Counted from the stretch's first letter, positions 31,380-37,308 are shown. The stretch: DNA of 64,000 nucleotides from an uncultured Chloroflexia bacterium (GCA_963700285.1 CAVOXA010000010.1:864001-928000), one strand, 5' to 3'. Made by a program: numbers and translations. The notes: a model not told the origin generated them from the sequence alone.

Positions 31380-32408
31380 CTACTTCTTTAACAACTGCCG
31401 GCTCGCCGCGTAGGGATCTAGCCGACGCTGGGCAATCTGGTCAACCAGGGAGGCCAGTTGGTCCTTGGCCGTACCCTCCAGGATCCGGCGCAGCGATTCC
31501 TGTTGGATGATTGCCTCCAGCTCAGCGGCGGCCCGCTCCCGCTCGCGCCAGGCCAGCTCCCCCGTTTGCTCCAGGTAAGCCCGGTGTGCCAGGACGGCTT
31601 CGGCCAGTTCGGCGATCCCTTCCCGTCTGGTGGCTACAGTCTTGTGGATGGAGGGAAGCCAACCCGAGGCGTCGATGGCCATATCCTCTTCGCGGCAGGC
31701 TGTGGTGACCGCTTCTATCAATCGCCCATGGTGCATGGCCCTGGATTCTGCCCCTGCGTTGAGGTTGAGCATCATGCTCAGGGCCATTACTGCATGGTCG
31801 GCACCCTCCCGGTCGGCTTTGTTCACGGCAAAAACGTCGGCAATCTCCAAAAGCCCAGCCTTGATGGCCTGGATGTCGTCGCCCAACCCCGGTACTTGGA
31901 CGACGACTGTGGTGTGTGCTGCCTTGGCAACATCTACCTCCGCCTGACCAGCACCGACCGTCTCGACGATAATCAAATCATAGCCCGCCGCATCCAATAT
32001 TCTGACCGCATCGGCGGTGGCCCAGGCCAGGCCACCCAGATTGCCCCGGCTGGCCATGCTACGGATAAAAATGCCCCGATCGCCAGCCAGATCCCTCATG
32101 CGAATTCGGTCGCCCAAGATGGCGCCCCCGGAGAAGGGACTAGTCGGGTCGACGGCAATGACGCCTACCGTCATGGCGGGGGACTCGGCCGAGCCCTGCC
32201 GCAAATGCAAGACGAGGGCGTTGACCAGCGTACTCTTGCCGCTACCTGGGGGTCCGGTGACGCCGACGATGTGGGCCCGTCCGGTATGAGGGTGAAGGGC
32301 GGCCAGGGTGGCCTGGGCTTCTGGGCCATCGCCCTCGACGAGACTGATGGCCCGCGCTATCGCGCGACGGCTCCCGGCCAGAACCAGTTCTGCAAGCTGC
32401 TCGGTCAC
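31380..32408 (-). CDS. meaB: Acyl-CoA mutase-associated GTPase MeaB
   Basis: [43 protein letters not shown]. Confidence 0.95.
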
Positions 32409-32800
32409 GCGACGTTCTCGTGGATGAACTTGACGATTTCATCTGTGGGGGTACCGGGTCCAAAAACACCATGGATGCCCATCTCGTATAGGCTTGGTAC
32501 ATCCTCGTCGGGAATGATGCCACCGGCCAGGACCAGCACGTCCTCCATATCGTTCTCGCGTAGCAACTCCATCATCCGGGGGAAAAGGGCCATGTGGGCG
32601 CCTGACAAGATCGACATGCCTACCACGTCTACGTCCTCTTGAAGCGCTGCCTCAGCGATCATCTCTGGTGTCTGGCGGATGCCGGTGTAGATTACTTCCA
32701 TGCCCGCATCGCGCAACGCCCGAGCAATAACTTTGGCTCCCCGATCGTGACCGTCCAGGCCCGGCTTGGCAACCAATACGCGTATTCTCCTGTCTGTCAT
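32405..32800 (-). CDS. Acyl-CoA mutase small (cobalamin-binding) subunit
   Basis: [11 protein letters not shown]xHxxG motif, SILSGAH, GGIIP. Confidence 0.96.
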
Positions 32801-32869
32801 CTATGCCTCCAACAGTGGGGTACGGCGCAGCACGCAATGCACATTTCGCAGTGTCCAATACCCAGCAGC

Positions 32870-34549
32870 TCAAACGATCGCCGGTTCCCGATATTCGCCA
32901 AATACCTTACGCAAGACGCCCATAATCTCTCCCAGGGTCGCGTAGGCTCGCACGCAATCCAGGATACGGGGCATGGTATTTTCGGTGCCCTCGGCTGTAC
33001 CTTGTAGGGCCTTTAGGGTCACGCCGACCTTTTCGTTGTCCCGCTCGCGCCTCACCTGTTCCAGACGCGTTACCTGTCGCTCGTACCCTTCTGGATCCAA
33101 CTTTAGCAACGGAATCCGGATCGGATCTTCCTCCAAATGCTCGTTGATGCCCACGACGACACGCTGCCGGCTGTCGATCGCCATTTGATACCGGTAGGCC
33201 GCCTCGGCAATCTCGCGCTGGAAAAACCCCTTCTCGATAGAGAGAAGGACGCCGCCCAGTGTCTCGATCTTGTGGAAATAGTCGTAGGCCTCTTTTTCCA
33301 AACGATTGGTCTGGGCCTCGACAAAGTAAGATCCGGCCAGCGGGTCTACCGTGTTGGCCGCGCCACTTTCATGGGCAATGAGCTGTTGGGTACGTAGTGC
33401 AACCTTCACTGCGTATTCGCTGGGCAGAGCCAAGGCTTCGTCCATGCTGTTGGTGTGCAGAGACTGCGTACCACCCAGCACCGCGGCCAGCGCCTGCCAC
33501 GCCGTGCGGACGACGTTGTTCTCCGGCTGCTGGGCCGTCAGGCTGCTGCCCGCTGTCTGGGTGTGGAAGCGTAGAAGCCAGCTTCGGGGATCTTTTGCTC
33601 CAAAGGTTTCCCGCATCTCCCGGGCCCAAATGCGCCGGGCTGCACGGAACTTGCAGATTTCCTCAAAGAAATCATTGTGTGCGTTGAAAAAGAAGGACAG
33701 CCGGGGGGCAAAGTCGTCCACATCCAGCCCCCGAGCGATGCCCCAGCGCACGTACTCTAACCCGTTGGCTAGAGTAAAGGCCAGCTCCTGAGCCGCCGTG
33801 GCGCCAGCCTCGCGGATGTGGTAGCCACTGATGCTGATGGTGTTCCATCGGGGCAGGTACTTGCCGCCAAACTCGAAGGTATCGACCACCAGTCGCATCG
33901 AGGGTTGGGGCGGGAAGATATACTCTTTCTGGGCGGTATACTCCTTCAGGATATCATTTTGGATGGTTCCGCCCAGCACATCCAAGGGAATGCCTCGCTT
34001 CTCGGCCATGGCCAAGTACATAGCCCAGATCACGGCTGCCGGGCTGTTAATCGTCATCGAGGTAGTGACCTCGTCCACGGGGATGCCGTCGAACAAGACC
34101 TCCATGTCAGCCAGGCTGGATACAGCCACGCCGCATTTTCCAAACTCGCCTAATGCTGCAGGATCGTCGGAATCGTAGCCATAGAGGGTAGGCATATCAA
34201 ACGCTACCGACAAGCCGGTCTCGCCCTGATCGAGCAGATATCTGTAGCGGGCGTTGGTCTCCTCAGCAGTACCAAAGCCGGCAAACATGCGCATGGTCCA
34301 CAGCCTGCCGCGGTGCATGGTCGAATGTATCCCTCTGGTGAAGGGGTACTCGCCTGGAAAGCCTAGATCCCGCGCATAGTCCAGGTCAGCAACGTCCAAC
34401 GGGGTATAGAGACGCTCTACCGGCGCGCCTGAGGTGGTCGTGAACTCGTCACGTCGCTCCCGGTGGCGGGCCAGAGTGCTCTGAAGCGTGGTCTCTTTCC
34501 ATTTGTCCTGGCGTTTTTGCAGACCTCTCAGCGTCTCTTGATCAAACAT
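32870..34549 (-). CDS. Acyl-CoA mutase large subunit, isobutyryl-CoA mutase-like
   Basis: Mutase barrel without B12 domain; [10 protein letters not shown] (Phe) and KEYTAQKEY (Gln) at the two specificity positions. Confidence 0.85.
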
Positions 34550-34573
34550 GGCTGCCTCGCTTTCTACCACTCC

Positions 34574-35024: not shown

Positions 35025-35124
35025 GGTCCTCCCAGTCATCATTGCAGCGGATGGAAGCGGATATGCGTCAAGGGCCGCGCAAATCCTGCATCCGGTTGGC
35101 TGTTGGCAACTCGTTGCCCCAGAA

Positions 35125-35556
35125 CTAGTACGTCCGATCCCATTCAGCTTCCACCTGTTTGTGCCGAACTTTCTCGGGCAGGGGAGACGGGGGTGGCGTC
35201 TCCATCCAGGGAAAAGGCTGCGGGATAGACGAGGGTTCTGGAGGGACCGACCGCCGGCCCCATTCGGGTTGCTCCTTCCCATCCGCGCCGGCAGCTGGTT
35301 GGACCAGGCCAGTCAACTCTACGAGAAGAGGAAAATCTGGATTCACACGATAGAATACACGATTTCCCCTGGCCGAACGCAGCAGTAGATCCATCTCGAC
35401 CAGGCGCGCGACCTCGCGCTGCACAGCTCGAATGGGCTGGCCTGTCCTACGCTCGATCTGGCGCTGATAGAATGATTGTGCAGGATTTGGCAGGAACAGG
35501 CGTAGTATCTGGACCCTTGCTACAGAAGAAAACAGCACCTCCAAGCTATTTTTCAT
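35125..35556 (-). CDS. Winged helix-turn-helix protein with Pro-rich tail
   Basis: LFSSVARVQILRLF...YQRQIER...AVQREVARL...GNRVFYRVN ArsR-like wHTH. Confidence 0.75.
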   Translation of the reverse strand: MKNSLEVLFSSVARVQILRLFLPNPAQSFYQRQIERRTGQPIRAVQREVARLVEMDLLLRSARGNRVFYRVNPDFPLLVELTGLVQPAAGADGKEQPEWGRRSVPPEPSSIPQPFPWMETPPPSPLPEKVRHKQVEAEWDRTY

Positions 35557-35628
35557 GGTTCCACCCCTCTCACCGATTGGCTTGGTTGCCCTCGGGGCCA
35601 GCTTCAGCGTGCCTTCAAAGCCGTGGTA

Positions 35629-37308
35629 CTAGAAGGAGGTAAATGCTTGGTACTCTCCAAATACTTTGCGCAGTACGTTACAGGTCTCACCTAGGGTTGC
35701 ATAGGCTTCAACAGCATCCAAGACAAGGGGCATCAGATTCTGATCCCCTTGGGCGCCGGCCTCCAGGCGAGAGAGCGCTATCGCTACCGCATCTCCATTC
35801 CTTTGCGCTCGCAGAATCTCCAGCCGGGCGGCCTGGCGCTGACCGACGACCGGATCGACCTTCAGTAGTTCGAGTCCAACCCCTCCCCGGGAGGTTCCAT
35901 TCTCCTCTGCCTGGAAGCGATTGACGCCGACGACGATATTGGCCGATTGCTCGACGGCCAACTGCCACTGGTAGGCGCTTTCCTGGATTTCGCGCTGCAC
36001 GTAGCCCTGTTCGATGGCCCTCAGCGCACCGCCAGCGCCATCGATCTTGTTGATATAGGCTAAGGCACGTTCTTCAATCTCATTCGTCCAGGCTTCGATC
36101 AAATAGCTGCCGGCGAGAGGATCGACAGAATCGGCTACGCCACTTTCGTGGGCGATGATCTGCTGAGTTCGCAGGGCGATCTGTACCGCATCCTCGGTAG
36201 GTAGACTGAGCGCTTCATCGCGAGAGTTGGTATGCAGGCTCTGGGTACCGCCAAGCACAGCAGCCAGTGCCTGGAGCGCGACGCGGACGACATTGTTCTC
36301 TGGTTGTTGGGCCGTAAGCATCGACCCTGCTGTCTGTGTGTGAAAGCGGAGCCGCCACGATCGCGGGTCTCGGGCGCCAAACCGCTCGCGCATGATCCGC
36401 GCCCAAAGCCGCCGAGCGGCCCGAAACTTGGCCACTTCTTCCAGAAGGTTGTTGTGGGCATTGAAAAAGAAGGACAATCGCGGCGCAAAATCATCTACGG
36501 CCAACCCCGCATCGATGGCCGATTGTACGTAGGTGATGGCATTCGCCAGGGTAAAGGCCACCTCCTGAACCGCGGTGCTGCCAGCCTCGCGAATGTGGTA
36601 GCCGCTAATGCTTATGGTGTTCCACAAGGGGACCTGTTCGTGGCAGTAGCGAAAGAGATCGGTGATGAGCCGCATTGAGGGGCCCGGAGGGTAGATGTAG
36701 GTTCCCCGGGCAACATACTCTTTCAGAATATCATTTTGAACGGTACCCCGCAGTTTCCTCGGATCCACGCCCTGTTTCTTGGCCACGGCGATGTACATCG
36801 CCAACAACACGGTGGCGGGAGCATTGATGGTCATGGATGTGGAAACTCTAGCCAGTGGGATGCCATCGAACAACCTCTCCATATCCTCCAGTGAAGATAT
36901 GGCCACTCCGACTTTGCCTACTTCACCGGTCGCGATGGGATCATCCGAATCGTAGCCGATCTGGGTGGGCAGATCGAAGGCAACCGAGAGGCCAGTCTGG
37001 CCCTGATCCAGAAGGTACTTGTAGCGAGCATTGGTTTCCAGGGCGCTGCCAAAGCCGGCGTATTGGCGCATTGTCCAGAAGCGACTGCGATACATCGTGG
37101 GCTGGATCCCGCGGCTGAACGGATACTCACCTGGAAAGCCCAAGTCGTGCAGGTAGGCGCCATCTACATCATCAGGCGTGTAGATCCGCTCCACCGGAAT
37201 TCCCGATTCAGTCTTGAACTCGGGTTGTCGTTCTGGGAAACGCCGGAGCGTATCGTCCAACGTAGTTGCTTCCCACGCTAGCTTGTGTTGATCAAGTGTC
37301 TCCACCAT
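35629..37308 (-). CDS. Methylmalonyl-CoA mutase large subunit
   Basis: [10 protein letters not shown] (Tyr) and KEYVARGTY (Arg) carboxylate-binding residues; [10 protein letters not shown]. Confidence 0.92.

Follow-up and report, generated by a model that had tools for sequence, protein, structure and literature searches.

A 64,000-nt stretch of DNA from an uncultured Chloroflexia bacterium (CAVOXA010000010.1:864001-928000), referred to here as the window and numbered from its first letter, carries on its minus strand a run of genes in which two acyl-CoA mutase large subunits of different predicted specificity are encoded together with one cobalamin-binding small subunit and one MeaB chaperone. 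On the evidence of copy number, gene order and trees, it is likely that the single small subunit and chaperone serve both large subunits. The four genes are as follows.

35629..37308, minus strand: P0001, acyl-CoA mutase large subunit with Tyr89/Arg207, methylmalonyl-CoA mutase type (TIGR00641, PF01642, residue table, tree)
32870..34549, minus strand: P0002, acyl-CoA mutase large subunit with Phe89/Gln207, isobutyryl-CoA mutase type (TIGR00641/PF01642, alignments, residue table, tree)
32405..32800, minus strand: P0003, cobalamin-binding small subunit with the motif DGHDRG (TIGR00640), the only copy in the assembly
31380..32408, minus strand: P0004, MeaB G-protein chaperone (TIGR00750), overlapping the P0003 stop by 4 nt, the only copy in the assembly

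Both large subunits are intact proteins of 559 aa with full-length matches to TIGR00641 and PF01642 and no fused B12 domain, and they are 63% identical to each other. In methylmalonyl-CoA mutase (MCM), Tyr89 and Arg207 (Propionibacterium numbering) bind the substrate carboxylate, and in isobutyryl-CoA mutase (ICM) the same positions are Phe and Gln. The original prediction, made from the sequence alone, had read this difference from the motifs RQYAGFG and YVARGTY in P0001 and RMFAGFG and YTAQKEY in P0002, all of which occur exactly as claimed at 35629-37308 and 32870-34549, respectively. The reading is correct and its register is right, because F89 and Q207 of P0002 align with Tyr89 and Arg207 of Propionibacterium freudenreichii MCM (1REQ), that is, with the RQYAG tyrosine and the MVRNT arginine; P0001 keeps both of these residues. 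P0002 thus lacks the residue pair of an MCM, and at both specificity sites it has the pair of ICM, as does IcmF (PDB 4XC6), which was mapped onto P0002 via an IcmF homologue from genome G064 and reads TRMFAGEG and KEDQGQNTC at the two sites, the RMF and GQN motifs that P0002 matches. In the tagged 4XC6 chain the IcmF sites are numbered 618 and 762, which fits their usual names, Phe598 and Gln742. From the IcmF alignment and the literature, we infer that Phe/Gln marks an ICM. The equivalents of Gln197, Tyr243, His244, Glu247, Gln330 and Glu370, which are presumably the catalytic residues, are present in both P0001 and P0002. Among the 119 nearest homologues of P0002, the equivalents of F89, Q197, Q207, Y243, H244, Q330 and E370 are invariant, and at 80 loci of its relatives the matched gene has Gln207 in every case and Phe89 in 79, the remaining one being truncated. 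Thr205 of YTAQKE was considered as a new signature and rejected as a local variant, as 112 of the 119 homologues have Ile there. The comparison that the original prediction had proposed was run against P. freudenreichii MCM, IcmF, HcmA and Xaut_5043. The Tyr/Arg sites are used as MCM determinants likewise in a passage of PMC7238569.

Automatic annotation had been expected to call both large subunits MCM, and databases do label close homologues of P0002 methylmalonyl-CoA mutase or give them a generic name; the misannotation of an ICM (IcmF) as MCM is already in print, according to a passage of PMC7764203. The nearest named relatives of P0002 belong to Chloroflexota, mostly Anaerolineae, and we accordingly treat the bacterium as a member of the Anaerolineae. 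The Streptomyces plasmid matches retrieved were all of the Tyr/Arg type (5/5). A search of clusters at 50% identity gave, among its 150 best representatives, 69 with Tyr/Arg and 18 with Phe/Gln. A further 53 of these representatives (P0124-P0273) in which both sites were read have other residue pairs, some of them perhaps through misalignment, which points to many mutase specificities that have not been characterised.

The assembly (7.05 Mb in 22 contigs, 89% complete, 6.5% contamination) contains two PF01642 matches and, over the respective cut-offs, one MeaB match and one TIGR00640 match out of 15, P0003. By our reading of the translations, the other 14 TIGR00640 matches are longer DxHxIG-type corrinoid proteins of the methyltransferase type or a regulator-like protein. 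When P0003 was searched against the assembly with tblastn, by which frameshifted copies are detectable, P0003 alone was returned. The genome-wide search for a second small subunit that the original prediction had named as a check has thus been made, with none found in an 89% complete assembly, and the statement that only one DxHxxG small subunit and one MeaB are present extends from the window to the genome. The genome of a same-genus relative (G151) has the same pair of large subunits and one small subunit. It is extremely unlikely that the two large subunits have a small subunit apiece, the second of them encoded in sequence missing from the assembly: the incompleteness of the assembly, frameshifts elsewhere in it and the two or three small subunits of some other genomes leave room for such an arrangement, but tblastn gives no second copy, and the same ratio recurs in the same-genus genome and in closed genomes. 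As for the frameshifts, family searches of contigs C1, C5, C6, C10 and C14 show many enzyme genes, among them acyl-CoA dehydrogenase, E1 and POR, as neighbouring pieces, which fits assembly indel errors; the mutase cluster is free of such fragmentation. Separately, about 13 genes for methyltransferase-type corrinoid proteins, on several contigs (L004-L017), suggest a heavy use of cobalamin-dependent methyl transfer in this bacterium.

The distribution of the two subunits was examined in a class sample of 151 Anaerolineae genomes, 150 of them at least 90% complete plus the present one. Large:small ratios are counts of matches that include split genes, IcmF and fused MCM, with the types read in part of the genomes. 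The commonest state is 2:1 (76/151), followed by 1:1 (30), 3:1 and 0:0 (15 each), 3:2 (8) and 0:1 (2), and the states 1:0, 2:0, 2:2, 4:1 and 4:2 occur in one genome each. At least two large-subunit matches accompany one small subunit in 92 of the 151, and 15 of the 17 genomes without a large subunit are also without a small one; a single MeaB match is found in 128 of the 134 class genomes having any. Genes were typed in 15 class genomes. Five of these have one Tyr/Arg gene, one Phe/Gln gene and one small subunit each (G012 and G103, assembled in one contig each, G099 in two, G043 and G071); G044 and G051 also have both types with one small subunit, and G006 apparently does likewise, in fragments. 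Among the others, G031 is Tyr/Arg only, G127 is Phe/Gln only, G064 and G128 use IcmF, and G049, G114 and G118 have two B12-domain matches and a further mutase type. In 102 of the 151 genomes a match to P0002 reaches at least 852 bits, and all 30 genes typed in that band are Phe/Gln. The original prediction saw in this locus an overlooked branched-chain isomerisation in this organism; the residue reading behind that suggestion stands, and the layout is not special to the organism: 2:1 is the norm of the class and is found in three other phyla as well.

Gene order is also conserved. In 12 clusters selected for having both large-subunit genes on one contig, the order MCM, epimerase, ICM was found in all 12, followed by the small subunit in ten and additionally by MeaB in nine, so that the full order MCM-epimerase-ICM-small subunit-MeaB occurs in 9 of 12 clusters from five families. 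Fourteen genomes with a single large subunit were retrieved, eight with Tyr/Arg and six with Phe/Gln, each from an incomplete assembly and each with one small subunit. In four of the Tyr/Arg genomes the small subunit comes immediately after the epimerase, the slot of the Phe/Gln gene looking empty, and in two of the Phe/Gln genomes it follows the ICM gene; the single-large state is consistent inside families f3, f32 and f49. Divergent extra large subunits were seen in G044 (L134), G154 (L257), G049 (L131) and G118 (L133), which keep Tyr/Arg and have other pocket residues altered, showing either GQYSG together with an altered 164-170 strand or a Gly where Gln330 would be. The single small subunit of G044 and G154 might serve three barrels, and in G049 and G118 a second small subunit is present.

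Outside the class, 17 genomes were chosen for carrying a Phe/Gln gene. A typed Tyr/Arg gene is also present in 13 of them, ten of which have one small subunit. This lone small subunit adjoins the Phe/Gln gene in six (four Acidobacteriota and two Trueperaceae); it adjoins the Tyr/Arg gene in three, all of them Dehalococcoidia chromosomes, and one Oscillochloris has it on a different contig. The strongest argument for sharing is that the large subunit left without a neighbouring small subunit can be of either type. In two small archaeal bins with both types no small subunit was found.

Large-subunit trees were made with FastTree from 77 rows, after leaving out 45 Phe/Gln rows at random, four broken or duplicate rows, fragments below 500 aa and one beta subunit, and with IQ-TREE from 22 hand-picked rows, in both cases without a characterised stand-alone IcmA. 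The Phe/Gln proteins of Chloroflexota, Acidobacteriota, Deinococcota and Thermoplasmatota form one group (98 in FastTree; 93/93 in IQ-TREE and 99/96 without the Acidobacteriota row), sister to 2-hydroxyisobutyryl-CoA mutase (HCM) and a haloarchaeal Phe/Gln protein (IQ-TREE 99/99), and P0001 falls among Tyr/Arg proteins. The long IcmF branch is of unsure placement. A recent duplication within the genome as the source of P0001 and P0002 was rejected, with a p-AU of 0.0016 for the tree forcing the pair together. The small-subunit tree (36 rows), which is short and weakly resolved, is sorted mainly by taxonomy and not by partner type: the small subunits of Phe/Gln-only, Tyr/Arg-only and two-type Anaerolineae are mixed in one clade (FastTree 95), and those of HCM and Xaut_5044 are apart from it.

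These trees also bear on the idea that P0001 and P0002 form one heterodimeric enzyme with one small subunit, in which the Phe/Gln chain would be structural or regulatory like the beta chain of Propionibacterium MCM. The clustering of the two genes in many Anaerolineae would suit such an enzyme, and 63% identity could permit mixed dimers, but we regard it as very unlikely: the two types are old separate lineages and pairing of the window copies is rejected by the p-AU value above, all catalytic residues checked are invariant, three f49 genomes have the Phe/Gln type with no Tyr/Arg gene, and in closed genomes the two genes lie far apart. P0002 as a non-catalytic MCM beta subunit was likewise rejected, as it has an intact active site and scores 190 bits against the beta-subunit model TIGR00642, the cut-off of which is 617.

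It is a further question which CoA ester P0002 acts on. We infer butyryl/isobutyryl-CoA from its residues, and it is rather unlikely that P0002, while sharing the small subunit, works mainly on another carboxylate-free ester such as isovaleryl/pivalyl-CoA or 3-hydroxybutyryl/2-hydroxyisobutyryl-CoA. Consistent with another ester, the Gln207 proteins and HCM fall in one clade (99/99), three Acidobacteria loci have a Phe/Gln gene close to genes of carboxyltransferase and HMG-CoA-lyase-like type, the pivalyl-/isovaleryl-CoA pair is likewise interconverted by IcmF according to a passage of PMC10481361, and a second HCM type, RcmAB, is described in a passage of PMC7176365. However, P0002 has Phe89 and Ala116 and not the Ile/Asp of HcmA, nor has it the Leu/Asn of Xaut_5043, and no acyl-CoA ligase gene stands beside the mutase in the window, unlike in the HCM clusters examined. 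The neighbours of 79 Phe/Gln genes, counted with one representative annotated per cluster, fit butyryl-CoA oxidation, including acyl-CoA dehydrogenase (7), hydroxyacyl-CoA dehydrogenase (6), enoyl-CoA hydratase (6) and thiolases (8 and 5).

The proposed mechanism is as follows. An adenosyltransferase encoded elsewhere would provide adenosylcobalamin, MeaB would dock on the small subunit and gate its loading, and the loaded small subunit would cap either TIM barrel. P0001 with P0003 would catalyse the reversible conversion of succinyl-CoA to (R)-methylmalonyl-CoA, with the cluster's epimerase, biotin carboxyl-transfer set and carbonic anhydrase serving it; the adjacent epimerase and carboxyltransferase support this role. 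P0002 with P0003 would interconvert isobutyryl-CoA and n-butyryl-CoA, having Phe/Gln in place of the carboxylate-binding Tyr/Arg, and would most likely send valine- or isobutyrate-derived carbon to a beta-oxidation set on another contig. An isolated cobalamin domain binds MeaB and raises its GTPase activity 25-fold, as reported in a passage of PMC9974510, and one MeaB per one small subunit is therefore to be expected under sharing. A PduO-type adenosyltransferase is encoded in the genome, and contig C6 carries together a thiolase, a hydroxyacyl-CoA dehydrogenase, an enoyl-CoA hydratase, two acyl-CoA dehydrogenases and electron-transfer flavoprotein; several 2-oxoacid dehydrogenases and oxidoreductases of unassigned specificity are also present. 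Neither this genome nor four others of its family yielded a methylmalonate-semialdehyde dehydrogenase. Given the adenosyltransferase, the C6 set and the lack of this dehydrogenase here, the conversion of isobutyryl-CoA to butyryl-CoA and on to acetyl-CoA is the likely use of P0002, a use also proposed for Syntrophothermus lipocalidus in a passage of PMC5017805, with its direction and physiological role predicted.

Several observations weigh against these interpretations. The assembly is 89% complete and 6.5% contaminated; the ratios in the class are match counts, with split genes, IcmF and fused MCM counted and typing partial, and come from kin that are not independent; and ten of the 151 class genomes have two small-subunit matches. 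Beyond the class, the planctomycete G166, the last of the 13 two-type genomes, has three large and three small subunits, and a Xanthobacter plasmid has two split mutases, each with its own small subunit and MeaB. The nearest characterised relative of P0002 in the tree is HCM and not IcmF. Finally, methylmalonate-semialdehyde dehydrogenase is matched in 49 of the 151 class genomes, many of them Phe/Gln carriers, which weakens the idea of a valine bypass; that ICM replaces a missing valine route fits the bacterium's own family and was rejected for the class as a whole. With these points considered, the comparative counts, the gene order, the placement of lone small subunits and the small-subunit tree support what the original prediction had proposed, and two intact mutase barrels with MCM and ICM signatures probably share the one small subunit and MeaB encoded alongside them.

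The remaining features of the run and its borders are listed below.

41905..41933, minus strand: candidate Sigma-70-like promoter (GTGACA-17-TATAAT, 11/12) upstream of tpiA, a consensus match only
41085..41858, minus strand: tpiA, triosephosphate isomerase, first gene of the co-oriented run (TIGR00419 and PF00121 above cut-off)
39343..40893, minus strand: acyl-CoA carboxyltransferase, PCC-beta / transcarboxylase 12S / MmdA-like (PF01039 above cut-off; TIGR01117 at 832 bits, below the cut-off of 998.8)
37782..39302, minus strand: pyruvate/oxaloacetate carboxyltransferase, PycB / transcarboxylase 5S-like (PRK09282 above cut-off; the 5S model PRK12330 at 601 bits, below 827)
37318..37785, minus strand: biotin carboxyl carrier protein (PF00364); the likely start is an ATG overlapping the upstream stop (ATGA)
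35125..35556, minus strand: open reading frame (ORF) of 143 aa, ArsR-like winged helix followed by some 45 aa of conserved tail (below the NF033788 cut-off, E 0.0017)
34629..35024, minus strand: methylmalonyl-CoA epimerase (TIGR03081 above cut-off)
34574..34584, minus strand: extended -10 element TGTGGTATAAT, candidate internal promoter 33 nt before P0002, a motif match only
30713..31348, minus strand: beta-class carbonic anhydrase, last gene of the run (PF00484)
30671..30707, no strand assigned: likely terminator, a 17-bp hairpin separating the cluster from the convergent gyrB

The order of the run is thus tpiA, carboxyltransferase, 5S/PycB-like protein, biotin carrier, P0001, winged-helix ORF, epimerase, P0002, P0003, MeaB and carbonic anhydrase. 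The original prediction makes no mention of the epimerase and winged-helix ORF that separate the two large subunits, nor of the surrounding carboxyltransferase, 5S-like, biotin-carrier and carbonic anhydrase genes. The promoter at 41905..41933 is a possible start of a transcript of the whole cluster, in a promoter search with five promoter-like sites observed against 4.5 expected. The TGTGGTATAAT element is a possible internal promoter for ICM, small subunit, MeaB and carbonic anhydrase; 18 of 73 Phe/Gln genes have a loosened form of it upstream, compared with a genome-wide rate of 0.018 per 160 nt (an intergenic background would be higher), and the element is kept in G151, G113 and G142 and was not seen in G082, G044, G153 and G154. 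It is conceivable, although we hold this only tentatively, that the small subunit and MeaB are an exchangeable B12 cartridge, with one loaded cobalamin module moving between the two barrels or forming hybrid complexes with them, that a separate promoter of the Phe/Gln gene tunes the division of scarce cofactor between propionate and isobutyrate metabolism, and that about two thirds of Anaerolineae (102/151) would then be unrecognised isobutyrate/butyrate isomerisers. An Rfam scan of the window gave no RNA family and hence no cobalamin riboswitch there. One RNA run was matched (X1, share 0.05), with scattered short contigs only, which carry no information on expression.

The carboxyltransferase, 5S/PycB-like protein and biotin carrier resemble a methylmalonyl-CoA:pyruvate transcarboxylase, or may be part of a carboxylase; biotin carboxylase is absent from the cluster (37318-40893), the rest of the genome not having been searched for one. 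In the relatives L030, L048 and L069 a biotin carboxylase is found near the mutase genes instead. The winged-helix ORF (35125-35556) is 62-64% identical to counterparts in three same-family genomes. In G044 (L021:9170-9420) its slot keeps the C-terminal tail alone, as a short ORF, and in G139 (L197:8012-8670) the slot is filled by a winged helix whose C-terminal domain is different and longer; the tail may be a small accessory peptide. Elsewhere in the window are an ISL3-family transposase in three overlapping frames, apparently frameshifted (26361-27743, plus strand), a Mutator-family (IS256-like) transposase (53171-54349, minus strand), and an nSTAND1 NTPase with WD40 repeats over two frames (59425-61313, minus strand), possibly a single frameshifted STAND-WD40 gene.

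A literature search of titles and the starts of abstracts gave no small subunit common to MCM and ICM and no ICM in Anaerolineae; primary mutase papers and supplements fall outside its coverage, so that absence from print is not established. Neither such a common subunit nor an ICM in Anaerolineae is described in passages of PMC10481361, PMC6759758, PMC7176365, PMC5017805, PMC7382037, PMC2847961, PMC7764203, PMC7238569, PMC10832561 and PMC9974510. Both enzyme types are known, and the 2:1 layout is the usual state in the class and not peculiar to this organism; with known chemistry and a common layout, the surprise is limited. If sharing is confirmed, two mutases of differing specificity are served by one natural cobalamin-binding subunit with its chaperone, which would offer a simple system in which to study how cofactor is allocated and to swap mutase specificity. 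Confirmation would also correct how a gene carried by most Anaerolineae is annotated, and their metabolic reconstructions would gain isobutyryl-CoA isomerisation.

Among known systems, IcmA/IcmB of Streptomyces cinnamonensis (EC 5.4.99.13) likewise has split large and cobalamin-binding subunits, and its IcmA has the Phe/Gln specificity pair; here, however, the Phe/Gln gene is part of a cluster for the methylmalonyl-CoA pathway that encodes a second large subunit, of the Tyr/Arg type. Metallosphaera sedula Msed_0638 and Msed_2055, which we take to be a split archaeal-type MCM with a Tyr/Arg large subunit, a separate small subunit and an adjacent epimerase, differ from the present locus in that a second, Phe/Gln large subunit stands here between epimerase and small subunit. 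IcmF of Cupriavidus metallidurans shares the RMFAG motif and the Gln at the specificity sites with P0002, and interconverts isobutyryl- and n-butyryl-CoA, and also pivalyl- and isovaleryl-CoA, again as given in a passage of PMC10481361. It combines cobalamin domain, chaperone and barrel in one chain, whereas these are separate genes here; P0002, about 34% identical to it (via the homologue), was rejected as an IcmF, as the fusion is absent and the score is 349 bits against an IcmF-model cut-off of 1500. Syntrophothermus lipocalidus Slip_0757-0760 is a split isobutyryl-CoA mutase with MeaB, proposed to lead isobutyrate into beta-oxidation; unlike the present cluster it is self-contained with its own adenosyltransferase, and the passage of PMC5017805 that covers it describes no shared MCM subunit. 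HcmA/HcmB (PDB 4R3U), also of split architecture, is the best PDB match for both subunits, and HcmA has Gln207 and the AQKEY motif in common with P0002. At sites 89 and 116, which presumably correspond to Ile90 and Asp117 in HcmA numbering, HcmA has Ile/Asp where P0002 has Phe89/Ala116, and P0002 was not taken for an HcmA, given these residues and the lack of an adjoining ligase gene. Xanthobacter Xaut_5043/5044, which we take to be a pivalyl-CoA mutase, has Leu/Asn at the specificity sites in place of the Phe/Gln of P0002, which was therefore rejected as a mutase of that type. The HCM and Xaut_5043 systems each have their own small subunit and MeaB, whereas at the present locus one set would serve two barrels.

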